A stretch of DNA of 64,000 bases from an uncultured Planctomycetales bacterium (GCA_964595465.1 CAZQQI010000011.1:8301-72300), one strand, 5' to 3'; positions 10,708 through 27,533 are shown, counted from the stretch's first letter. Notes: generated from the letters alone by a model not told the origin. Made by a program: numbers and translations.

Positions 10708-13128
10708 TTATTTGAACGTCAAGCCGTCACCTGAACGCACAACTTCGATCTTCGAACCCGGAGGATGTTTTCCGGCGATGATCTCCTCGGCCAGAAGATC
10801 CTCGACGTGGCGCTGAATGGTCCTCTTCAGAGGACGCGCCCCGTAAACCGGATCAAACCCTTTATCGATCAGAAAATCCAGAGCCTCGGACGTCAGCTCG
10901 ACATCGATCTCTTTTTCCTTGAGCCGTTTGATCACACCGCGCACCTCGATCTTAACGATCTTTTCCAGGTCTTCCCGGGTCAATGACTTAAACACAATAA
11001 TGTCATCAATACGGTTCAGGAATTCCGGTTTGAAAACCTTTTTCACCTCTTCCAGCAAACGTCCGCGCATATCGGCGTAAGACGTGTCCTCAGTCTGGGC
11101 CGCGAATCCCAGCGAACCCCGTTTACGCAGCATTTCCGCGCCCACATTCGACGTCATCAAAATGATGGTATTGCGGAAATCGACCTTGCGCCCCAGGCTG
11201 TCGGTCATGCGCCCGTCCTCCAGGGCCTGCAGAAGGATATTAAAGACATCCGGATGCGCTTTCTCGATCTCGTCGAGCAGGACCACGGAATACGGCTTAC
11301 GGCGCACCTTCTCGGTCAGCTGCCCGCCTTCTTCATACCCCACATATCCAGGCGGGGCACCGATCAGACGCGAGACATTATATTTATCCATATATTCCGA
11401 CATGTCGATCTGGATCAAGGCGTCTTCATCGCCGAACATGAATTCTGCCAGAACACGCGCCAGCAGGGTTTTCCCCACACCGGTCGGTCCCAGAAAAATA
11501 AAAGAACCGATCGGCCGGCGCGGATCTTTGATCCCCGCGCGGGACCGGCGGACCGCCCGGGCGATAGCGCTGATCGGCTCTTCCTGTCCGATCACCACCT
11601 CTTTCATCTTTTCTTCCATAGCAAGCAGACGTTCACTTTCTTTCTGCTCCAGACGGACCAGAGGAATCTTCGTCCATTGTGATACCACCTTGGCAATATC
11701 TTCTTCCCCGATGGTCACAGAAACTTCATCACGTTCCTTGGTCCAGGCGTCACGGACTTTATCCAATTCCTCGCGGGTTTCACGCTCCTCATCCCGCATC
11801 TTGGCCGCAGCCTCAAAATCCTGGCTTTTGATATGGGCTTCCTTTTCCTGCTTGAGAACTTCGATACGGTCCTCGAGGTCCTTGATTTCCGGCGGGATAC
11901 GCATCACGTTGATCCTTGCCCGGGACCCGGCCTCATCCAGAATATCAACAGCCTTATCCGGCAGGGCCCTCCCGGAAATATAACGCTCCGAAAGGCGGAC
12001 CGCTGCGCGGATCGCTTCGTCGGAAAATTTGACCCGATGGTGGGCCTCATATTTATCACGCAGCCCTTCCAGGATCTGCACGGCTTCCTCTTCCGACGGA
12101 GGCTCGACCATAATGGTCTGAAAGCGCCGTTCCAGTGCTGCGTCTTTTTCGATATTCTTGCGGTATTCGTCAAGCGTGGTGGCGCCGACACATTGAATCT
12201 CTCCCCGGGCTAACGCCGGTTTAAGAATATTAGCGGCGTCGATGGCTCCTTCCGCGGCCCCGGCACCGACCAGGGTATGGATCTCATCCACGAAGAGGAT
12301 GAGGTTGCCTGATCGTTTGATCTCCTCCATGATGGCCTTGATCCGTTCTTCGAACTGACCGCGGTATTTTGTCCCGGCGATCATCAGCGCCAGGTCCAGG
12401 ACCACAATATTTTTGTCCCGCAGAATTTCCGGGACATCACCATGGATGATCTGCTGAGCGAGACCTTCAACAATAGCCGTTTTTCCGACACCGGCCTCCC
12501 CGAGAAGAACAGGATTGTTCTTGGTGCGGCGGCTGAGGATCTGCACAATACGTTCGATCTCTTCTTCGCGGCCGATCACCGGGTCCAGTTTGTTCTCTTT
12601 CGCTAATTTGTTGAGGTTACGCCCGTAGGCGTCGATCGCCGGGGTCTTCCCGCTGCTTTTTTCCTGCTCCTGCATATTAAAACCGGCCACACCGGATCCC
12701 AAAATCTCCATGATCTCCATGCGCAGACGGTCCAGATCCACTCCCAGGTTCAGCAGGACCCGGTAGGCCATGCCTTCGCCCTCGCGGACCAGGCCGAGCA
12801 AAAGATGTTCTGTGCCGATATAATTATGTCCGAGAGCGCGGGCCTCCTCGGCAGATAATTCCAGCGCCTTCTTTGAGCGCGGAGTAAACGGGATATCTCC
12901 CAGGACCTGGGTCTGCGGACCCGGCTGGACCAATTTTTCGATCTCGATACGGATCGTTTCCAGATCAACACCCATTTTCTGTAAAACCGCGGCGGCGACC
13001 CCTTCTCCCTCTTTCACCAGTCCCAAAAGAAGGTGTTCCGTCCCGATATAATCATGATTGAAGTGCTTAGCCTCTTCTTTGGCCAGCACGATCACCTTGC
13101 GTGCACGTTCCGTGAATCTATTAAACAT
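10708..13128 (-). CDS. clpC: ATP-dependent Clp protease ATP-binding subunit ClpC
   Basis: Duplicated Clp-N repeats ([18 protein letters not shown] / [18 protein letters not shown]), two AAA+ modules ([16 protein letters not shown]), and a UVR motif in the linker. Confidence 0.95.
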
Positions 13129-14182
13129 TATTTTTCCCTCCTAATTTTAAGCGGATAAGATTAGCACGTTTAATATCGCGGGCGGACGCCGAAAGACGTC
13201 CTCCGGCGATCTTCTGCAGATGCGCCGGCTGAATTGCGATAAAAAGCTCATTTAAAACCTTCTGACCAACATTCTTCACGATACCCAGGTCCACACCCAG
13301 ACGGACCATGGACAGCAATTCCAGTGTCTCCTGACTGGATATGATCCGGGCATTGTGCAATACCCCCAGAGAACGGAAGATCTTATCCTCCAGCATGGGT
13401 TTATTCTGAACGACCAGGGCCTGACGGGCCTGCTCCTCTTGTTCAATGACCTGTATGATCAGACCATTGATATTCTGTAAAATATCATCCTCGCTATGTC
13501 CCATGGAAACCTGATTCGAGATCTGGTAAAAATTCCCGAAGGCATCGGTGCCTTCCCCGTAAAATCCCCGGGCAGCAAAATTCAGTTTCGCAATCGCATT
13601 CAGGACCTTATTGATCTGCTTGGTCATGGCCAGCGCCGGCAGGTGCAGCATAACCGATCCCCGCATGGCTGTTCCGGTATTGGTCGGACAGGCTGTCAGA
13701 TATCCCCAGCGGGGAGAAAAGGCAAAAGCCAGTTTCTCCGCCAGACGGTCATCAATCGCATTAATAACGCCCCAGGCCTCAAAGAGGTTCAGGCCTGAAT
13801 TGAGAACCTGCACCCGCAAATGATCTTCTTCATTGATCATAACCGAGAGGATCTCTTCCTGCGACACGATCAAAGATTTAGATTCCCCCTCGGCCGCGTG
13901 TTCATGGCTCATGAGATGACGCTCGACCAAAAATTCTTTATCCACATTATCCATTTCGGTCATAGGGAATACCGTGGCATTCTTAAAGTAATCGACCTCT
14001 TTAACGGCCTCTTCAACAGACACCATGACCGCCTGCAGCTGCTTTTTGGTCGCCCGGTTGGTAAACGGCATTTTGGCCAGATTACGGGCCAGGCGGACAC
14101 GCGTCGAAAGCACAATATCGGAATGCGGGCCCGACCCCTTCAGCCATTCCCCGCTCTGAGTGATCAGATCGTCAAGATTCAT
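13121..14182 (-). CDS. mcsB: protein-arginine kinase McsB
   Basis: ATP:guanido phosphotransferase catalytic domain. I take the start at MNLDDLITQ..., which is preceded by GGGAGA. The track's longer ORF to 14251 would overlap mcsA by 80 nt. Confidence 0.85.
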
Positions 14183-14690
14183 GATTTTTCTCCCGCTGTT
14201 CCAGGTCTTTGAGCTTGTCCCGCAGGATTGCCGCCTGCTCATAATCTTCACGGACCACCGCCTGTTTCAGCTGTTTGCGCAGGTCTTTCAGATCATCGCC
14301 ATTCTGCTTGACGGACTGCACGTAGCGGCGGGGCCGCTTACCGGCATGACGGTTAGATCCGTGGATCTTTTTCAGCAAAGTGGTCAGCTGATCCCGAAAC
14401 GACTCATAGCATTCACTGCAACCCAGACGCCCGTATTTGCGGAAATCTTCATAGGACATCGAACAATGTTCACAGGCGGCCGTTTTTTGAGGCTCCTCTT
14501 TTTCTTTCGCCGGAGACTGATTGAAATCCGACAGCCCGGCGAGAAGATCGGCCAGACCGAACTGCTGTTCCATCTGCAGACTTTTCTCCTTAGCACACCC
14601 CTCACAAATATGCAGTTCGGTCACCTTCCCATCGATCAATTCTGTCAGATGGACCGTTGCTTTTTTCTGCTTACACACTTCGCATTTCAT
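14172..14690 (-). CDS. mcsA: McsA (zinc-finger/UVR activator of McsB)
   Basis: Paired CxxC zinc-finger motifs (CEVCKQKKA...CEGC; CEHC...CSEC) and a UVR-like segment (EQAAILRDKLKDLEQ). The order mcsA-mcsB-clpC matches Bacillus. Confidence 0.85.
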   Translation of the reverse strand: MKCEVCKQKKATVHLTELIDGKVTELHICEGCAKEKSLQMEQQFGLADLLAGLSDFNQSPAKEKEEPQKTAACEHCSMSYEDFRKYGRLGCSECYESFRDQLTTLLKKIHGSNRHAGKRPRRYVQSVKQNGDDLKDLRKQLKQAVVREDYEQAAILRDKLKDLEQREKNHES

Positions 14691-19140: not shown

Positions 19141-19285
19141 ACATTTTTCCCATCTAAGTAGACTAATACTAATTATAATATGAAATAAGTCTCATGATTA
19201 TATAGAAAATCACGGGGGGTGTCAATGAAAAGCACAGCGGGATATCCGGGGAAGGCTGGATCGGCACACAGAAAAGAAAGATCAG

Positions 19286-19339: not shown

Positions 19340-19693
19340 TTACGATTTCTTTTTGGAGCGCTTGCTCGAAGTCTTTTTGGGCGAACTCTTAATGCGCTTC
19401 TTAAGACGGCGTTCCTCTTTTTTCAACTCATTGAGATCCTTGACCAGCTTTTCCAATTTCGGGGTTTTTTGAGCCGGATATTTAGCCCGGACGTATTCTT
19501 TCCCGATCTGATAATACAAGCGCTCCAATTTTAAATTGATCGTGGTCGAATCCAGCTGCAGCTTCCCCTTTTTGGAAAACTTAACCAGCTGCTCTTCGCC
19601 TTTTTTGGCCAAGTCCACCGCTTCCTTGCTCATGGTCATCAACTGCTTGCGGATCTTGGGCCACTCTTTCTGGAAATAGGAATCGTCTGCCAT
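19340..19693 (-). CDS. hypothetical lysine-rich coiled-coil protein
   Basis: 117 aa from the second ATG, which is preceded by AAAGGA at 5-6 nt. The C-terminus is KKRIKSSPKKTSSKRSKKKS. No recognisable domain. Confidence 0.5.
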   Translation of the reverse strand: MADDSYFQKEWPKIRKQLMTMSKEAVDLAKKGEEQLVKFSKKGKLQLDSTTINLKLERLYYQIGKEYVRAKYPAQKTPKLEKLVKDLNELKKEERRLKKRIKSSPKKTSSKRSKKKS

Positions 19694-19777
19694 ATGCATC
19701 CTTTCTTTTTAATGGCTCTCTAAAATTTTGAGCGGATAGATCAAAAAATAAGGCGATGCTTTCGCGCGCAGTTCCGC

Positions 19778-19907: not shown

Positions 19908-20126
19908 CTAAGACTGTTTGAACAAGAAAGCACAACCTCGCCCTTCTTACCCGCTCATCTTTCCAAAGACCCTTTTTCATAACGGTCATCGCATATAATA
20001 GGTATTATAACAAAAACGCCGCTCTCAGTTCAATAATAAATGCGCCCTCTTCCCATAAAGAAAAAAATAACGTATACTATAAACAGTACATCAAAAAAGC
20101 TGCAATCCCTGTAGGACCTTATAGCC

Positions 20127-20465
20127 ATGAAATATATCCTTTTAATTTTTATAGCCATCGCCGCCATGATCGGGGCCAGCTCGCTCTATATGGACCTGAT
20201 CGGTCACGTCATGGGAGGTTCAGAGAAGACGATGAGTTCTCACAATAATCCGGAACACCGCATGCAGCTGCAGGAGCAGAAACGCCAACAGGAAGATATC
20301 CGCCGGCAAATGGACCGACTGAGGGAGGACCAGCGGCGGATGATGCGATCCCAGCGCGCGGAACAGGACCGGATCATGGGAAATCAGCGGCAGCAGCAGG
20401 AACGCCTGATGGAAGACAACCGTCGAAAAATGGAAGATCTGCGCCGTCAGACACAGCGATATTAG
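20127..20465 (+). CDS. hypothetical small membrane-anchored Gln/Arg-rich coiled-coil protein
   Basis: N-terminal TM (ILLIFIAIAAMIGASSLY) then R/Q/E-rich heptad-like repeats. It is the only plausible plus-strand gene in this region. The SD is weak. Confidence 0.4.
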   Translation: MKYILLIFIAIAAMIGASSLYMDLIGHVMGGSEKTMSSHNNPEHRMQLQEQKRQQEDIRRQMDRLREDQRRMMRSQRAEQDRIMGNQRQQQERLMEDNRRKMEDLRRQTQRY

Positions 20466-20488: not shown

Positions 20489-21202
20489 TCAAACCTTATA
20501 GACTTTATCGCCGGCCTTGACCGGTTTCTTAACCTTCAGCCCGACAAGGCTCCCCTTCCGCGCGACACGCACGTCCCGGCTCTCAACCTGCATAGAGACG
20601 ACGGTCTGCCGAAAGTCTGTCTGTTTGCCGACAACACGGATCATCTCATTGATCAGCAGGCTCTTACCCGTAACCTTCAGAACACAGACCTTGATCTTGC
20701 TGAAATAATGCGTGACCTCGCCGACTAGCACACCCGGAGAAGCAGATGCAGTTGATTTTTTACGAACCGCCTTTTTCCGCGCGGGGCGGACAGGCTTTTT
20801 CTTTGCAGATGTTTTTCCGCTAACCTTAGGCCTTTTAACAGGTCTTTTTTTGACTGTCGTTTTCTGAGGAGTGTTCTGTTTCTTCTTAGCAGAAGATCTT
20901 TTGACAGACTTTACAGCTGCCTTTTTGCGGGTGGGGGCCTGTTTTTTGACTGTCTTCTTTTTTGCGGCTTTTTTCTTCATGGCCGGTGAAGCAGATCTTG
21001 AGGAGCTTCGCCGACGAGACGTATTCGCGACGGCCTTTTTTGTTTTCTTGGCAGCTGCACGCGGAACTGTCGTGCGCGTCCTTCCCGATCTGCGAGCCGG
21101 GCGTTTCCGGGATACAGCTGTTTTTCGTGAACGTTTTTTACGGGACGACGAACCGCGGATCAAGGAATGCAGAGATTTGAAAAGGCCGTCCAGAAAGGGC
21201 AT
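20489..21202 (-). CDS. histone H1-like lysine/alanine-rich protein with a C-terminal small beta-barrel domain
   Basis: About 150 aa of KKAAKK/KRPVK-type low-complexity sequence (Hc1/AlgP-like), then a folded-looking roughly 85-aa C-terminus (VGEVTHYFSKIKVCVLKVTGK...GDKVYKV). Last gene of the four-gene parA-like operon. Confidence 0.6.
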   Translation of the reverse strand: MPFLDGLFKSLHSLIRGSSSRKKRSRKTAVSRKRPARRSGRTRTTVPRAAAKKTKKAVANTSRRRSSSRSASPAMKKKAAKKKTVKKQAPTRKKAAVKSVKRSSAKKKQNTPQKTTVKKRPVKRPKVSGKTSAKKKPVRPARKKAVRKKSTASASPGVLVGEVTHYFSKIKVCVLKVTGKSLLINEMIRVVGKQTDFRQTVVSMQVESRDVRVARKGSLVGLKVKKPVKAGDKVYKV

Positions 21203-21209
21203 ACCGGAA

Positions 21210-21533
21210 TCAGGATAGGGATATTTTGTCGGCGATATCCGCCGCGATAGGCAAATCCACGTACTGCCCCATCAGGGCTTTAATGATGCCGATAAAGGCC
21301 AGAACAAAAAGAAAGAACACCAGCACTTTCACCAAAACCCAGGGAAGAATAATGCTCAGGATGAACATAGCCACCTGGCCGATAAACAGAACCAATCCCT
21401 GTTTGGCGTGAGCCAGAACGAAAGGATCATCTTTTTTGAAAAGCAGAGGAAAGATACACAAAATAGACAGATATCCCAAAAGAGCAAAGATCTTGGATTC
21501 TGCGTTGCGTGGGACAGGAGCCGATTTAGTCAT
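21210..21533 (-). CDS. DUF4870-like small membrane protein
   Basis: 107 aa with two or three TM helices and an FVLAHAKQGLVLFI motif; 8-nt overlap with the upstream ParA-like gene. Confidence 0.6.
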   Translation of the reverse strand: MTKSAPVPRNAESKIFALLGYLSILCIFPLLFKKDDPFVLAHAKQGLVLFIGQVAMFILSIILPWVLVKVLVFFLFVLAFIGIIKALMGQYVDLPIAADIADKISLS

Positions 21534-22641
21534 TTGCCTGAACCTCTATGAGAGAGTTGATATCGCCGAAAGAGTTGCGTTCCTGGTCAGGGTTTGACGG
21601 ATCTTCCCGCCAGCGTCCGTCGACAATAAACTGATAGCGGTAATTTCCCGGACGCAGAGGGACCTCGACATGCCAGCGTCCGTCGCCGTTGCGGTTCATG
21701 CGGAACTGTTCATCCAAAGACCAGTCATTAAAACTTCCGGTCACATAAACCGACTGCGCGTCCGGCGCGTCCAGTTCAAAACGGATACGGCTGAGAAAAT
21801 CTTCAGCCTCCTGCTTGATCGTGTCTTTCATCCGTTCCGAAAGTTCGGTTTCGGATTGTTCGGACCGTTCTTCTTTTGCCTTGGCCTCGTGCCGGGCGAT
21901 CACTTCTTTGGCCAGTGAAAAATAATCTTTGGAGCCCCGGCAGTATTTGTCATAGGTCACGACCGTCTTGCCCATAACCGCGGACTCTTTAAGCTTGACA
22001 TTGACATGGATGATCGTATCGAACAACGAACCGGCAAACATCTCCCGCATCCTGGCCAGCATAGCGAAGGAGTGCCGCAGACGCGAATCAAACATAGTCA
22101 CCAGAATTTTATATTCAACAGGATGATTGAGCCGGTCCCGGATCAGGCGGACAATGTCCATCAAATGCTCAACCCCCTGCAGAGAAAACCGGCTGGTCTC
22201 GACAGGAATATAGACCTCGTCACTGGCACGCAAGGCGTTAATGGTCAAAAACCCCAGGCTCGGCGGGCAGTCGATCAGGACATAATCATACTCATCTTTT
22301 ATCGTATCCAGGACCTCGGTCAGCTTGATCTCACGGCCGATCTCATCAGCCAATTCCTGCTCCAGGGTTCCGACCAAAAGATTAGACGGTACCAGATCAA
22401 AATTGGTTTCCACGCGTTTAATGATCTGACTAATGGTAAGTTTGCGCGGAGCGATCTTGGAGATGACATTATACATGCTCTCCTGACATTCAAAGTTGAG
22501 TCCCAGCGAGGCATGTGCCTGAGGATCCAGATCGATCAGCAGCGTGCGCTTGCCGTCACGGCTGAGTGAAGCCGCCAGGTTGATGGCGGTCGTGGTTTTT
22601 CCGCAGCCGCCCTTTTGATTCCCGATCGATATAATCTTCAT
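21526..22641 (-). CDS. orphan ParA/MinD-family ATPase fused to a C-terminal AMPK-beta/CBM48 glycogen-binding domain
   Basis: Deviant Walker A IGNQKGGCGKTTTAINLA; Soj/ParA-like core of about 250 aa; an acidic linker. The C-terminus VYVTGSFNDWSLDEQFRMNRNGDGRWHVEVPLRPGNYRYQFIVDGRWREDP matches the CBM48/AMPK-beta GBD pattern. No parB nearby. Confidence 0.85.
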   Translation of the reverse strand: MKIISIGNQKGGCGKTTTAINLAASLSRDGKRTLLIDLDPQAHASLGLNFECQESMYNVISKIAPRKLTISQIIKRVETNFDLVPSNLLVGTLEQELADEIGREIKLTEVLDTIKDEYDYVLIDCPPSLGFLTINALRASDEVYIPVETSRFSLQGVEHLMDIVRLIRDRLNHPVEYKILVTMFDSRLRHSFAMLARMREMFAGSLFDTIIHVNVKLKESAVMGKTVVTYDKYCRGSKDYFSLAKEVIARHEAKAKEERSEQSETELSERMKDTIKQEAEDFLSRIRFELDAPDAQSVYVTGSFNDWSLDEQFRMNRNGDGRWHVEVPLRPGNYRYQFIVDGRWREDPSNPDQERNSFGDINSLIEVQAND

Positions 22642-22682
22642 AAACTATCCCCTTTTAGATTTGAATACCACCAAATTCTAAC

Positions 22683-23273
22683 TTAACCGGATAACGCGTT
22701 GGAGAAACAGACATCGTCAATGAGCAGCTCTCCCCGGTCCTTTTCCGCGTTCCATGATTCCAGGATAAATTTGATCTCCCTGATCTGAGACCAGTCTGTC
22801 AGACCTTCAAATTCTGCGAAAGGGATCTGCTGCTTTCCCCATCGCTCGCTGATCCCGGAAACCATGACCGAAGCCGTTTCCCTGCGGGCATTGCGGACCT
22901 CGATGCGGACGATCCCGGGATTGCCGTATTCCCCGCCCCGGGCTCGAAATTCCAATTGCCCATACCGGCCTCCGTCGATATCTCCGACGGGAAGTACAAA
23001 TGTTTTGACCTGAGGATACGGATGGCCGATGTTATAGCGCACCCGGATCGGTCCGTGGTTCAGCGAATAGATCACGCGCTCGCGCAGCGTGTCGCTCCGC
23101 CGCGTCAAAAAAGCGGTAAAGCCGTAAAAGGCGCTCGCGAAAATCACAACCGTTATGACAATGTTGATAACCAGCCAGGCACTGAACTGTTTTTTATCTT
23201 TTGCTGTTCCGGATTGATTTTTCTTGCCCAGATAAACGCGCGCCAGGTGGTCGTAAATTTCATCCCTGGTCAT
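22683..23273 (-). CDS. single-pass membrane protein with a CBM-like (galactose-binding-like) beta-sandwich domain
   Basis: Basic N-terminal tail, one TM (WLVINIVITVVIFASAFYGF), then a roughly 150-aa domain ending ...GELLIDDVCFSN. This terminal motif is typical of CBM4/9/CIA30-like modules. First gene of the operon. Confidence 0.55.
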   Translation of the reverse strand: MTRDEIYDHLARVYLGKKNQSGTAKDKKQFSAWLVINIVITVVIFASAFYGFTAFLTRRSDTLRERVIYSLNHGPIRVRYNIGHPYPQVKTFVLPVGDIDGGRYGQLEFRARGGEYGNPGIVRIEVRNARRETASVMVSGISERWGKQQIPFAEFEGLTDWSQIREIKFILESWNAEKDRGELLIDDVCFSNALSG

Positions 23274-23545
23274 ACTGCAAATCCAATCATATCAAAGGGT
23301 TCGGACTCTCCCGCACCCGTAAGCTCTTAAGTGATACTTTATCATAACAAAGAATATATCAATTTTAAAATATTTTTCATGTTTTTTCTATTTGCATATT
23401 TATTGCATTCCTCGTCGAGAAATATGTTTCTATACACATCCAGTCATGGAAAATTTGTTTTGGGGAAAGAATAAAAGGCTCTATGAACGTTTGCGCGGGT
23501 AAAACACAGAATAATGTGATGTTTCGTATTTAAATAATTTCTGCT

Positions 23546-23672
23546 CGAATGGCGATAAAAAAGATCGGGAGGGACACGCAGAGCGAGTTCCGAACCGAAC
23601 GGTTCATTATAAAAACGTTCGGGAGGTTGTTTGAGCGAACGCGTCCCTCCCGATCTTCCTGAGCCATTCAGC
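23546..23672 (+). repeat. family-1 structured intergenic element, copy B
   Basis: cgaatggcgataaaaaagatcgggagggacacg + conserved core gcagagcgagttccgaaccgaacggttcattataaaaacgttcgggaggttgtttgagcgaacg + cgtccctcccgatcttcctgagccattc. A 14-bp inner stem and a 6-bp outer stem. Confidence 0.8.
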
Positions 23673-23783
23673 TGCAAAATTGTACACGAAAGCATTACCG
23701 TATCCGCCATACCCATTTATTTTTTAAAGAAGCAATAAAAAGAAAACGCGCTTTTATAAAAAGCACGCCGTCTGAAAAACACC

Positions 23784-23820
23784 GTAAAAAAAGCCGGCAG
23801 GGATCGCTCCCTGCCGGCGT
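23784..23820 (-). terminator. intrinsic terminator of the porin gene
   Basis: The minus strand reads GCCGGCAGGGAGCGATCCCTGCCGGC followed by TTTTTTTAC, 15 nt after the stop at 23836. Confidence 0.8.
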
Positions 23821-23835
23821 ATTCATCAAGCGGTC

Positions 23836-25182
23836 TTAGAAGGCCACCTTGGCGTTCAGCAACAGCTGTGATGCTGTTTCTTCATCCTCTCCATCAAAAC
23901 GGTCATCCGGGAAGAACCAGCCGGCGCGGGCGCCGAACTGCACATCCTCGGTATAGTCATAGGTCATAACCAGACCGACTTCCTGACCGAGATTTGTCTC
24001 TTCGGCTTCCCCTGATAGTTCCGGACTAGCCGTTCCAGCTGGCTGTACAAGTCCAATAGCACTGACTTCCTTATCCAACCACAGATAGTCATAATACGCC
24101 TTGGCCGTTACATCCTGCATCGGGACCACTGTCAAATGGGCACCGATCGTATGAGAATTCGTAGCGTTGAACAGCGCATTCTGTATCTTTCCACCGTTCT
24201 GATTTTCATACATCGGATCCCATGCGCGGTAATCACCTTCACCGCCGGAAGCCGCATCGTCTCCGCTGTACATGGTGTATTCCAGACCTAATACAGGCTG
24301 ATACTTCTTGGTCTCTTCAAACGGCAGCATGTAATTGGACAGGATCTGCAAAGCGTAGGCTTCGCGGTCATACTGCGCGGAGCCTGATTCATAATCCCCG
24401 AACTGCATGGCAGCCTCTGCGCTCAGGTTCCAGCCGTCAAGCACATTCATGCTGGCGCGCACACCCGGCATATAGATTTTATTTTTTAAAGCACTTTTAT
24501 TCTCTTCAACCCAAAAATACCCTTCAACTACAGTGTTACGTTCATCATCGAATTGATAATTCGCGTTGACACCATAAAGGTTATTATCGTCAACGACATC
24601 GGTCCCGGTGATCGTCCCCTGGTCTATCGCTGAATACAGCAGATCGATAGTCAACGGGTCATAGTCAAAGGTCAGACGGATCGCGTCCTGCGCGGTCTGC
24701 TTGGTCAGGTCCTCTGCAACATTATACAGACCCGATGCCGTAGAAACCGAGTTGTTCGGGCCGGCAGAGTCGATCACAAAAGAATTCCCAAAAGCGAATT
24801 CCTGACGACCCAAAGTCACAGTGAGCGGAGAATACAGCATCTCCTTCATTGTCACATACGCAAGGTTTAAATCTACCTCTGTAGTACCGGATGAATACGT
24901 TGTTCCTTCGGGGTCAGTCGCAGAATCATCCCCCCACACTCTCTCATTGATGAGGCCAATGGTGGCCATGACCTTGTCGGTCAGGTCCGCGTCGACCCGC
25001 AGACGGGTCTGCATAAGGAACGCGCTCTGATCATTCAGCCCGGTAGAAGCGCCGAGATTAAAGTCAGTGCGGTTGACATACGTGCTTTCAATATCACCGC
25101 TGACCTTGACGTTCTGCACAGACGCGACGGCCGGCGCAGCGATCAGGGCAACAGCGATCAATGCTAATAATACTTTTCTCAT
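23836..25182 (-). CDS. putative outer-membrane beta-barrel porin
   Basis: Start at MRKVLLALIAVALIAAPAVASVQN (signal peptide), preceded by GGGAGGAG. The sequence shows amphipathic beta-strand character and a C-terminal ...LLLNAKVAF (terminal Phe), typical of OMPs. Confidence 0.6.
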   Translation of the reverse strand: MRKVLLALIAVALIAAPAVASVQNVKVSGDIESTYVNRTDFNLGASTGLNDQSAFLMQTRLRVDADLTDKVMATIGLINERVWGDDSATDPEGTTYSSGTTEVDLNLAYVTMKEMLYSPLTVTLGRQEFAFGNSFVIDSAGPNNSVSTASGLYNVAEDLTKQTAQDAIRLTFDYDPLTIDLLYSAIDQGTITGTDVVDDNNLYGVNANYQFDDERNTVVEGYFWVEENKSALKNKIYMPGVRASMNVLDGWNLSAEAAMQFGDYESGSAQYDREAYALQILSNYMLPFEETKKYQPVLGLEYTMYSGDDAASGGEGDYRAWDPMYENQNGGKIQNALFNATNSHTIGAHLTVVPMQDVTAKAYYDYLWLDKEVSAIGLVQPAGTASPELSGEAEETNLGQEVGLVMTYDYTEDVQFGARAGWFFPDDRFDGEDEETASQLLLNAKVAF

Positions 25183-25440
25183 AGGGTCTCCTCCCAAAAA
25201 GTTAGTACAAATTTGAATCTATATGAACTAGTGTCTATAAGGCCTAGTCATAACCGCGTTAGACCAGCTGCCGATGATCCTGACTGCAAGAATTCCATCA
25301 CCCCCTTTCGTGTCTGTTTAAGATCATCACTGGGTTGAGGACGAATACTTGTAAACAGCAGTATTCTCACACACTTAGGAAGACCTGTCAAAAAAAAACT
25401 GAATTATTTTTCACCGAACGTTCACAATCAAAAAACGGGA

Positions 25441-25594: not shown

Positions 25595-25668
25595 TGCGCC
25601 TGGGGGGATTCGAACCTCCGACGCCGGCCTTAGGAGGGCCGCGCTCTATCCATCTGAGCTACAGGCGC
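25595..25668 (-). tRNA. tRNA-Arg (anticodon CCT)
   Basis: The minus strand reads GCGCCTGTAGCTCAGATGGATAGAGCGCGGCCCTCCTAAGGCCGGCGTCGGAGGTTCGAATCCCCCCAGGCGCA: a 7-bp acceptor stem, a D arm, anticodon stem CGGCC/GGCCG with loop CTCCTAA, and a T arm. CCA is not encoded. Confidence 0.9.
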
Positions 25669-25721: not shown

Positions 25722-27533
25722 TCAATCAGCGCTGTTATTATCTTGCACACACAATGACGCGTCCAGCGTTTGGCCGTATTCTTCTCTATAGAACTCGCGC
25801 AGGTCTTCATACGCGCGGCAATACATCAACGGCGCATCCCCCCGCCGGATAACCGCTGTTACGCTGTCCAGGACCTTATCACTCAACGCCTTATGCTGCT
25901 CCGGCGCCCGGCAGAGCGCGGTATGAAAATACCATAAAGCCCTCTGGTCACGGCCGGTGCTCAATTCCACCAGACCCAGCCAGTAATACGCCCAGTAAAA
26001 ATTCGGCTTTTCGACAAACACCTGTCTTAGATGCGCGCGAGCCTTCTCCAATTCTCCGGACACCGCGTATATTCTGCCCAGGTTAAAGTGCGGATCCCAG
26101 GCATCCGGTGATATCTGCAGAGCCTGCTGATAATAAAAGACCGCTTTCTCTACCGCATCCGATTGTCTGCGCTCCATCCAACCAGCCGCTTCGCCTCCTC
26201 TGGCCTGACGCATAAAAAACCGCGCTTCACCAAACCCGGCATCTTCCAGATAAGCCTCCGCCAGTTTGGCATATACCAAACGGATCCTCTTTTCATTATG
26301 GTCTATATTCGCGGCCTGATACTGCCAATAACGTAAATTTGTTTTCCAGAGCAGGACCTGTTCCCGTGTCCGCAGGCCCATGAGAATGAGCCCGGCCAGG
26401 ACCGCCGCGGCCAGGACCGCCCGGTAAGAGGCTCTCTTCTTTTCCTGGAAACGACGCGCGATCACCCCTCCTAAATAGATCGTGAGTCCCAATCCGGGAA
26501 GATACATAAAACGGTCGGCCACGATATTCAGATCTCTCGCCGTATCCATCCGCAGTAAAAAAAAGATCGTCAGCACATAGAACAGGACCGCGAAGACATA
26601 AAGCCGTTTACGGCGGAATATCCAGAGACTGCCGGCCAACAACAGCGAGGCCGCTATCGGAATAGAATAATGCGGATTCAGCAGACTCACCGGTTTGGGC
26701 AGGGCATAAATGGCCTGCAAAGCACCCGGAAAGAAAAATTTTCGGATATAAAACCAGAAACACCAGACCCAGATCAAAAACGAATCCGGGAAGACCATGT
26801 TCAGAGGCCGCGCATTCATGGCAAAGCTTATCCAGGCGACCGGCCAGACCGCGCAGGCGGTCAGAATTTTTTCCAGCCAAAGCTCCAGACACGAGCGGCG
26901 GCAGAAAAACCAGTCCAGGAGCAGCAGAACCAGCGGAAGGCTCAAGGCCATAGGCTTGGCCAGCACACTCAGAAAACCTAACAGCGCCACCCCCAGGACC
27001 CAAAAAAGACGCCTGCCGGCCCCCGGGTTCCGTCCTCCCGCAACCAACTTGAGATAATGGACATAACCGATCAGGGCCAGCATATAAAAGACCATGAACA
27101 AGACATCCTTGCGTTCGGTCACCCAGACGACAGACTCAACGCGCAGAGGATGCACACCAAAAACCAGCGCCGATAACGCGGCGCCCCATAACGGCAGAGA
27201 CAACTGACGGGCAAAAATAAAGACGCCGATAACCGCCATCATATGAAGCAAAAGATTATTGAAATGGTAAACAAACGGATCAAGACCGAAAAAATGCCGC
27301 TCCAGAGCGAACGAGAACCCTGTCAACGGAATATAGATATTATTGACCTGATTGGTAAAAATACGCTCTATACCGGAAAAGCTTAAATCCCGCAGAAATG
27401 GATTGGCTAAAAGATGCGGGGCATCATCCAGGTTATGAAAACCGTAAAAAAGCGCCGGGCCGAACACGCCGGCCACGGCACAGAACAAGATCACAATAAT
27501 AACGGAATGTTTTATGAAAGAATCGCGTTTCAC
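25722..27533 (-). CDS. polytopic membrane protein with C-terminal TPR repeats (PMT/DUF1736-like glycosyltransferase family)
   Basis: About 11 TM helices over the N-terminal 400 aa, then three or four TPR units (YYQQALQISPDAWDPHFNLGRIYAVSGELEKARAHL...). Confidence 0.65.
   Translation of the reverse strand: MKRDSFIKHSVIIVILFCAVAGVFGPALFYGFHNLDDAPHLLANPFLRDLSFSGIERIFTNQVNNIYIPLTGFSFALERHFFGLDPFVYHFNNLLLHMMAVIGVFIFARQLSLPLWGAALSALVFGVHPLRVESVVWVTERKDVLFMVFYMLALIGYVHYLKLVAGGRNPGAGRRLFWVLGVALLGFLSVLAKPMALSLPLVLLLLDWFFCRRSCLELWLEKILTACAVWPVAWISFAMNARPLNMVFPDSFLIWVWCFWFYIRKFFFPGALQAIYALPKPVSLLNPHYSIPIAASLLLAGSLWIFRRKRLYVFAVLFYVLTIFFLLRMDTARDLNIVADRFMYLPGLGLTIYLGGVIARRFQEKKRASYRAVLAAAVLAGLILMGLRTREQVLLWKTNLRYWQYQAANIDHNEKRIRLVYAKLAEAYLEDAGFGEARFFMRQARGGEAAGWMERRQSDAVEKAVFYYQQALQISPDAWDPHFNLGRIYAVSGELEKARAHLRQVFVEKPNFYWAYYWLGLVELSTGRDQRALWYFHTALCRAPEQHKALSDKVLDSVTAVIRRGDAPLMYCRAYEDLREFYREEYGQTLDASLCVQDNNSAD

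Follow-up and report, generated by a model that had tools for sequence, protein, structure and literature searches.

A ParA-type ATPase with a C-terminal CBM48 module: a candidate organiser of glycogen particles in Omnitrophota

We have analyzed a 64-kb stretch of DNA from an uncultured Planctomycetales bacterium (GCA_964595465.1, CAZQQI010000011.1:8301-72300), which we call the window. It contains a cassette of four minus-strand genes: G1, which codes for a membrane protein, a gene for a ParA-type ATPase fused to a carbohydrate-binding module of the CBM48 type (the fusion), and two further genes, G3 and G4. Our preferred reading is that the cassette would be a nucleotide-switched tether which organises cytoplasmic alpha-glucan (glycogen) particles. 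This reading is well supported but unproven, and we give it a little less than an even chance. The closest relatives of the cassette are 15 Omnitrophota genome loci (L001-L015), and all loci have been read over 10 kb on either side of each fusion homologue. By the homologues of its fusion protein, the organism belongs to Candidatus Omnitrophota, a phylum of ultra-small bacteria.

The fusion protein and its family

The fusion has 371 amino acids. Its N-terminal part is a ParA/Soj-type ATPase: AAA_31 (residues 1-174, E 8e-55) and CbiA are found above the Pfam gathering cutoffs, and the deviant Walker A motif reads NQKGGCGKTT. The closest solved relatives of this domain are a ParA-ATP structure (8ray, E 1e-50), HpSoj and TtSoj. 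An AlphaFold2 (AF2) model of the whole protein, with a predicted local distance difference test score (pLDDT) of 79.5, leads to the same proteins: its top Foldseek matches are 8ray (E 3e-21, template modelling score, TM, to target 0.81), Soj 2bek and HpSoj 6iub, followed by McdA, MinD, BcsQ and FlhG. Three other classes have been considered and rejected. As a MinD, the protein reaches 55.7 bits with TIGR01968 (cutoff 212.9), its C-terminus is a CBM48 and no min genes are found nearby. As a BcsQ, it reaches 76 bits with TIGR03371 (cutoff 157.85), and there is no glycosyltransferase in the unit. As a tyrosine autokinase, it scores 51 bits against a curated cutoff of 108.

The C-terminal part is a CBM48 module of the AMPK-beta type, as the initial annotation had proposed. 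AMPK1_CBM (PF16561) matches residues 294-370 with E 7e-17 and 61.8 bits (cutoff 26.8), CBM_48 (PF02922) gives E 5e-8 and 33.7 bits (cutoff 22.4), and the module aligns to the glycogen-binding domain of rat AMPK-beta1 (1z0m/1z0n, E 5e-10). In the AF2 model it forms a beta-sandwich with a pLDDT of about 90. The two parts are joined by an acidic linker, and AF2 helices are found in this region at residues 236-264 and 269-280.

Far from being a rarity, this fusion belongs to a large family found in several phyla. We have searched 1.8 billion representatives exhaustively and have kept the top 150 clusters at 50% identity. Of these, 127 have an N-terminal ParA and exactly one C-terminal CBM48, with 34-47% identity to the query. 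Few of them have a named source; those which do come from Omnitrophota, Myxococcota, Planctomycetota, Candidatus Glassbacteria and unclassified bacteria. The CBM48 always closes the protein, the median number of residues beyond it being 2; the linker varies from 8 to 371 amino acids (median 43). The best 120 homologues are 61-80% identical to the fusion over their full length, all of them have both domains, and their named sources are Candidatus Omnitrophota. The same representative search also gave four proteins of 1337-1812 amino acids (P0307, P0318, P0320 and P0410) which consist of many CBM48-like repeats, with up to 18 matched stretches.

Two signatures are characteristic of these fusions: KGGCGKT is found in 93% and DPQxH in 98% of them, against 0% for both in 12 canonical Soj/ParA proteins. 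A metagenome search with these patterns alone retrieves at least 579 relatives; among the best 80, most match through the CBM48 end, and in 65 a called gene holds both domains. In a rough neighbour-joining (NJ) tree of ATPase domains, canonical Soj proteins form one clean clade, and the fusions do not form a single clade outside Soj. We consider the fusions a distinct subfamily by their signature residues and architecture, since the tree does not resolve them. No described ParA-CBM48 protein, nor any ParA-type system acting on glycogen, has been found in the literature we have searched. In databases these proteins are labelled "AAA family ATPase" or "chromosome partitioning protein", names that probably mislead.

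The residues expected of a working ParA are present. K10, K15, D37, D39 and D124 are kept in all 127 fusion clusters. The arginine equivalent to R189 of B. subtilis Soj (R187 here) is invariant in the family of the window and is kept in 112 of the 127. Two further basic positions are specific to fusions, and K216 is K or R in 99 of the 127 clusters. Judging from these residues, the ATPase appears catalytically complete and keeps the arginine used by Soj for non-specific DNA binding: it looks functional and DNA-binding. As a complete Soj-type ParA, it should therefore dimerise on ATP. We have also noted several cysteines: the Walker A residue Cys13 is a signature of the family, Cys234 hardly varies among the Omnitrophota members, and C125 is a third. 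That they may mean redox sensitivity of the ATPase is pure speculation.

The sugar-binding site may be compared with that of AMPK. McBride et al. (2009) described W100, K126, W133, L146 and T148 as carbohydrate contacts of AMPK-beta1, and mutation of any of them makes glycogen binding markedly lower (PMC2642990). We have compared the positions W100, K126, W133, L146, T148 and N150, in rat beta1 numbering. Among the 121 sequences of the window's family, W307 (W100), W344 (W133), F358 (L146), G359 (G147) and N362 (N150) are invariant. In the window's clade K126 is replaced by an invariant Gln (Q337), L146 by Phe (F358) and T148 by Asp (D360). The 127 fusion clusters keep W100 without exception, W133 in 123 and G147 in 122; N150 is N or D in 117, and K126 is K or R in 123. 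The sugar platform formed by the two tryptophans thus appears intact. The conservation of these residues, together with the three replacements, points to a ligand site which is strongly selected, but which in the window's clade is not the canonical AMPK site.

The cassette, its partner protein and alpha-glucan genes

The four open reading frames have been confirmed on the sequence, with the coordinates given in Table 1. Reading the gene junctions gives a gap of 41 nt between G1 and the fusion, a -8 nt junction with G3 (ATGACTAA overlap) and 7 nt between G3 and G4, so the initial annotation of four co-oriented genes was right in positions and spacing. A terminator-like hairpin ends the unit of the porin gene upstream of G1, promoter matches precede G1, and good matches are seen again only past G4, one at 20033 and one, a perfect consensus, at 19225. 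For these reasons, the four genes look like one transcription unit. The porin gene is the upstream neighbour of G1 in 11 of 11 Omnitrophota loci with enough sequence; it appears to be a conserved neighbour of the cassette but a separate transcription unit.

The gene order is conserved among relatives: G1 immediately precedes the fusion in all 15 related genomes, the DUF4870 gene (G3) is downstream of it in 14, and G4 comes next in seven. Among 80 metagenome loci, G1 is directly upstream in 17, a DUF4870-like gene is found at +1 in 10, and G4 is present in 13. Of the 17 loci with G1, four are of the window's clade (63-67% identity), with the order porin, G1, fusion, DUF4870 and, in some cases, G4. 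The other 13 form a sister clade (50-54% identity) with the same signature and the same gene order. Their porin homologue, with 29-37% identity, suggests that they are relatives of Omnitrophota.

The adjacency of GH57 genes is, among the sequence data, the best functional evidence for a role in glycogen, and it gives independent support to the link with alpha-glucans first proposed from the CBM48 module. In the sister clade, a GH57 protein of about 515 amino acids is encoded just upstream of G1 in 11 of the 13 loci. It is adjacent in 10 of them and one gene further in L077; the remaining two contigs end just before G1. This protein (Pfam E about 1e-60) has no signal peptide and presents WPSE and DGENAWEY motifs, and NCBIfam has no specific name for it. 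The full order is seen in L098: porin, GH57, G1, fusion, DUF4870, G4. The position of the GH57 gene is occupied in the window by the 562-bp spacer between porin and G1. Since the sister clade holds the gene there, it has been lost from the window's clade; tblastn at E 1e-5 detects no GH57 remnants in the window or in L001-L015. A more distant fusion, P0329 (38% identity), heads a co-directional cluster with two proteins without Pfam matches, a GH57, a DUF4912 protein and a GH57 branching enzyme, the latter recognised by NCBIfam branching-enzyme models (E 3e-107). Weaker hints are a glgC-type gene 3.6 kb from the fusion in L036 and a phosphoglucomutase gene 2 kb away in L038. In one study, most Omnitrophota metagenome-assembled genomes encoded glycogen synthesis (PMC8542988).

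G1 codes for a bitopic protein of a family with 409 members, all from Omnitrophota-type sources. It has no Pfam match and no match in a sequence search of the PDB. Its AF2 model (pLDDT 80.6) consists of a helix at residues 3-18, one long transmembrane helix and a beta-jelly-roll. The N-terminal flank of the transmembrane segment is Lys-rich, so the protein should have its N-terminus in the cytoplasm and its C-terminal domain in the periplasm. This outer domain has a CBM11/CIA30-like fold, in agreement with the CBM-like domain outside the cytoplasm suggested by the initial annotation. An upstream protein in L036 has the same layout, but its hhalign probability is 5% and we have not counted it as a G1 homologue.

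The first 18 residues of G1 are nearly invariant, while the mean column identity of the whole alignment is 63%. In an alignment of 47 homologues, M1, D4, I6, Y7, H9, L10, A11, V13, Y14, G16 and K17 are invariant. The sister clade has M[DE]KK[ED]IYEHLAKIYL at this place, and more distant homologues carry KEKLAQTYF or SEKLSQIYF. In lineages that lack G1, the fusion is followed by a gene for a degenerate protein of the ParA/CbiA fold (above the Pfam cutoff in L040) in which the P-loop lysines are absent. This protein begins, at the very N-terminus, with K(R)LGRGLEEVSHLFLSS, IKIDDVGHLFLSG, RKLDQFSHYFFSE or RKNLGDVLHYFIPE. The first of these versions includes LGRGL, which is typical of ParB N-termini and is seen in our control ParBs. 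The same pattern is thus found across lineages: the body of the partner varies and a short N-terminal peptide is conserved. ParB, MinE and McdB stimulate their ATPases through such peptides. Because of this match, the tail of G1 is likely a peptide which docks on ParA and stimulates its ATPase, as the initial annotation had suggested; the near invariance and the similar peptides elsewhere agree with this, while the contact with the ATPase is inferred. The arrangement with a degenerate partner, in other phyla, is a second and soluble version of the system. Examples are L031 (9168-10833), L040 (9149-10485) and L043 (6824-8428). The degenerate partner is followed by a protein of about 200 amino acids, with weak matches to NucS_C (PD-(D/E)xK) in two independent loci.

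The fusion appears to be an orphan ParA. Our ParB profile derives from the spo0J genes found directly downstream of soj in 11 of 13 ordinary Soj loci, which serve as a control. This profile finds no match in the window, in the 15 Omnitrophota loci or in the 80 metagenome loci, and a ParBc gene is absent from 11 Pfam-annotated contexts of distant fusion members. GC skew stays negative over the whole window and thus shows no switch of the origin type. Both observations agree with the absence of parB and the non-origin location given by the initial annotation, and in the loci examined homologues of this ParA are never beside parB. Membership in ParABS, judged by an adjacent parB near an origin, has accordingly been rejected.

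The two remaining genes of the cassette are G3 and G4. G3 had been called a DUF4870 protein: it is indeed a small membrane protein, with hydrophobic segments at residues 13-34 and 43-94, but its match to PF09685 (E 3e-4, 21.2 bits) is below the cutoff of 25. G4 has 237 amino acids. Its residues 1-155 contain 38% K+R and 1% D+E, with a pI of 12, and the amphipathic N-terminus is common to seven homologues. Homologues of G4 carry PF03144/PF16325 over the C-terminal 85 amino acids or so, and the barrel family consists mostly of stand-alone proteins of about 86 amino acids. One G4 homologue is found in L035 (E 1e-24). G4 itself matches no Pfam or NCBIfam family, including phasin/PhaM, and a sequence search of the PDB gives no match. 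Its description as a histone-H1-like protein with a C-terminal barrel holds for composition and barrel; binding to DNA is suggested by composition alone. G4 is an accessory gene, present in about half of the genomes.

Table 1. Position of the cassette, its domains and the adjacent upstream features in the window (nt; - is the minus strand)
Feature	Position	Strand	Residues or size	Remarks
Porin gene	23836..25197	-	453 aa	Outer-membrane porin, Alginate_exp-like; Pfam PF13372, E 1e-19, full profile
Terminator-like hairpin	23793..23818	-		Intrinsic type, 11 pairs (9 GC) and T-run; closes the porin unit
Porin-G1 spacer	23274-23835		562 bp	Non-coding
Promoter match cluster	23341..23390	-		Sigma-70-like, upstream of G1
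G1	22683..23273	-	196 aa	Bitopic inner-membrane protein; proposed partner/anchor of the ATPase
G1, N-terminal helix	23220..23273	-	1-18	Cytoplasmic; MTRDEIYDHLA(Q/R)VYLGKK
G1, transmembrane segment	23103..23192	-	28-57	
G1, beta-jelly-roll	22701..23072	-	68-191	Periplasmic; carbohydrate-binding-module fold
ParA-CBM48 fusion	21526..22641	-	371 aa	
Fusion, ATPase domain	21892..22641	-	1-250	ParA/Soj type; KGGCGKT deviant Walker A
Fusion, linker	21793..21891	-	251-283	Acidic, helical, length-variable
Fusion, CBM48 module	21526..21792	-	284-371 and stop codon	AMPK-beta-type, glycogen-binding
G3	21210..21533	-	107 aa	Small polytopic membrane protein, DUF4870-like
G4	20489..21202	-	237 aa	
G4, N-terminal region	20738..21202	-	1-155	Short amphipathic helix, then Lys/Arg/Ala/Ser-rich disordered tail
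G4, C-terminal barrel	20489..20737	-	156-237 and stop codon	EF-Tu-domain-2 / U32-C-like

The surroundings of the cassette are of a housekeeping type: sigma-70, phosphoribosyltransferase, PPDK, aminoacyl-tRNA synthetases, lolCDE, clpC/mcsB, dnaE, guaAB and groEL. A scan of positions 19-26 kb with Rfam yields a tRNA as its sole match; the spacer between porin and G1 has no RNA element. The tRNA gene (25595-25668, minus strand, 61 bits) is located between the porin gene and a gene for a TPR / PMT-like membrane protein (25722-27533). Further away, a gene for an McsB-type ATP:guanido phosphotransferase (13121-14251, minus strand) is directly upstream of one for a double-AAA+ protein of the ClpC/ClpB type (10708-13128, minus strand); this arginine-phosphorylation pairing of McsB and Clp is best known from Firmicutes and is found here in a genome of Omnitrophota.

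Some small genes are also found after the cassette. The minus-strand gene at 19340-19699 codes for a Lys-rich protein of 119 amino acids (24% K, pI 10.1), helical-looking and without Pfam match; homologues with about 50% identity follow the cassette in L001 and L013, so it might be a further accessory. Between this gene and G4, on the plus strand, there is a putative open reading frame (20127-20465) with a hydrophobic stretch at residues 1-26, followed by a repetitive tail rich in Gln, Arg and Glu. Finally, a conserved protein of about 140 amino acids (…LIRRYL(L/I)WCYKTTKEDLDRIDR…) is often encoded after the cassette in Omnitrophota loci: L001 (12480-12971), L003 (12266-12688), L006 (11612-12037) and L013 (12244-12660). 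It is not found at that position in the window.

Proposed mechanism and alternative explanations

We propose the following mechanism. The ATP dimer of the fusion would present two CBM48 modules and form a bivalent clamp, and because the dimer carries two modules its binding to glycogen would be gated by ATP through avidity, much as the C-terminal helix of MinD gates membrane binding. The same dimer would bind the nucleoid. G1 would be held in the inner membrane by its single helix and in the envelope by its periplasmic CBM-fold domain, and would show its 18-residue N-terminal helix to the cytoplasm. Once docked on the ATPase dimer, this helix would stimulate hydrolysis, so that the dimer lets go at the envelope. 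As binding and release alternate, glycogen particles would be spread out or kept in place with respect to the nucleoid and the envelope, and both daughters of very small cells would therefore inherit particles. The DUF4870 protein and G4 would be lineage-specific accessories, G4 maybe as a nucleic-acid-binding or condensate-forming adaptor. In a more general and more tentative form, ParA-CBM48 proteins may be a widespread, undescribed positioning class of the ParA/MinD type, with a glycogen particle as cargo or matrix, a bivalent clamp made by ATP and a reset by the N-terminal peptide of lineage-specific partners.

Several points weigh against the glycogen-tether reading. There is no glycogen gene in the window or within 10 kb of the fusion in the 15 closest genomes, and eight of the 11 distant contexts have none nearby. 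Q337 is invariant in the window's clade at the position of K126, whose mutation weakens the binding of glycogen by AMPK (PMC2642990). A cytoplasmic granule system has no need of a periplasmic domain in the partner or of a conserved porin next to it, and a model of granules simply carried on the nucleoid does not explain them. One rival reading is that the cargo would be an assembly in the membrane for which G1 is the mark, DUF4870 and perhaps the porin being part of it. The CBM48 would then be an AMPK-like sensor which tunes the ATPase to the amount or branching of glycogen, coupling an envelope or division-related function to reserves. In ParA systems it is normally the partner that marks the cargo; here the partner, G1, is integral to the membrane and has a CBM-fold domain in the periplasm, and porin and DUF4870 are conserved neighbours. 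The CBM of AMPK is a documented allosteric sensor of glycogen (PMC2642990), and the change from K to Q at a sugar contact suggests an altered affinity. Nevertheless, the same fusion has soluble partners and no membrane protein in other phyla, the porin is a separate transcription unit, and neither G1 nor DUF4870 has any known function, so we regard this explanation as doubtful. The replacements at K126 (Q), T148 (D) and L146 (F), as well as the lack of local glycogen genes, speak for a reading in which the module would be, in this clade, an E-set/Ig-like domain for protein-protein interaction, for example with G1, G4 or GH57, with a function unrelated to glycogen. CBM48-like folds do occur in non-glycan contexts, and a T9SS plug protein is found among the matches. 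On the other hand, the invariance of the platform tryptophans, G147 and N150 exceeds what the fold needs, Gln can presumably still hydrogen-bond sugar hydroxyls, and GH57 adjoins the same cassette in the sister clade. This makes a role in protein interaction quite unlikely.

The linkage to GH57 also argues against the idea that the fusion is simply the chromosomal Soj/ParA of Omnitrophota with an extra domain, with ParB encoded at another site or with G1 or G4 in its place. It is true that the ATPase is closest to chromosomal ParA/Soj structures and keeps the DNA-binding arginine, that it sits among housekeeping genes and is very strongly conserved (about 60-80% identity among the best 120), as expected for a core function, and that the NJ tree does not part the fusions from Soj as one clade. 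However, it never adjoins parB in about 105 loci and its signature residues are absent from canonical Soj. In addition, the same architecture is found in Myxococcota, where the fusion should be an additional ParA, since the model species of this phylum have canonical ParABS. We consider a role in chromosome segregation distinctly unlikely. Finally, the match of the porin to the alginate-export family, together with weak matches of the fusion to BcsQ and tyrosine autokinases, could suggest a BcsQ- or Wzc-like organiser of polysaccharide export, in which the porin would be the exporter and G1 a periplasmic glycan-binding subunit. This is highly improbable: the BcsQ, MinD and autokinase scores given above are far below their curated cutoffs, the unit has no glycosyltransferase or synthase, the porin is transcriptionally separate, and both CBM48 and GH57 point to a cytoplasmic alpha-glucan.

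Relation to known systems and significance

In bacteria, large objects are generally placed by ParA/MinD ATPases; this holds for chromosomes and plasmids as well as for carboxysomes, chemoreceptor arrays and division sites. Among them, the fusion appears by analogy to resemble most the orphan ParAs which position cargo, such as McdA, one of its structural matches. McdA/McdB, PpfA/TlpT, ParC/ParP and PomZ/PomXY also have an orphan ParA-type ATPase beside a small lineage-specific partner, and the fusion is predicted to work by the same logic, with the ATP dimer sitting on a matrix and hydrolysis triggered by a partner peptide. The differences are that here the module binding cargo or matrix is on the ATPase itself and that the partner, in this lineage, is anchored in the membrane. 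Glycogen would be a new class of cargo.

The fusion shares with chromosomal Soj/ParA (type Ib; 8ray, TtSoj 2bek, HpSoj 6iub) the fold, about 40-50% identity in the ATPase, the deviant Walker A with its signature lysine, the Walker A'/B aspartates and the equivalent of R189. It differs in the absence of a parB/parS partner nearby, in KGGCGKT, in DPQxH instead of DPQGN, in the C-terminal linker and CBM48, and in its membrane partner with a conserved N-terminal peptide. MinD and MinE offer another parallel: a C-terminal element that binds a surface, with an affinity that should depend on ATP dimerisation, and a partner with a helix in its N-terminal region. In the fusion, however, this element is a carbohydrate-binding domain of 85 amino acids instead of an amphipathic helix, and MinC and MinE are absent. 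The equivalents of W100, W133, G147 and N150 are shared with AMPK-beta (1z0m/1z0n), SEX4/LSF1, GlgB and pullulanases; in those proteins the CBM48 is joined to a kinase scaffold or a GH13 enzyme, here to a ParA ATPase.

G1 and G4 also have partial counterparts. HubP of Vibrio is an envelope-anchored landmark with a periplasmic LysM domain which recruits ParA-like ATPases. Like HubP, G1 would be a single-pass protein which has a periplasmic domain of a glycan-binding type and which would engage a ParA-family ATPase through its cytoplasmic part; unlike it, G1 has the opposite topology, a cytoplasmic tail of only 18-30 residues and a CBM11-like jelly-roll instead of LysM, and there is no sequence relationship. 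G4 resembles PhaM/PhaF of polyhydroxybutyrate (PHB) granules in its Lys-rich H1-like tail, which could bind DNA, and in its presence in a putative storage-granule cassette. It differs in the lack of phasin homology, in its barrel of the EF-Tu-D2 type and in being found in only about half of the genomes.

In summary, the ParA-CBM48 proteins form a family which is easily recognised by KGGCGKT, DPQxH and a C-terminal CBM48, and which is apparently unstudied. To our knowledge, the distribution and inheritance of glycogen particles in bacteria are essentially unknown, and a ParA with its own glycogen-binding module would give a direct molecular handle on their organisation. A carbohydrate-binding domain would add a third mode of attachment to the DNA-binding patch and the membrane helix of this class of ATPases. 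If the proposed reading is true, the cassette would be the first dedicated bacterial machinery for segregation or positioning of a storage polysaccharide, and glycogen stores in Omnitrophota would be physically coupled to the cell envelope.

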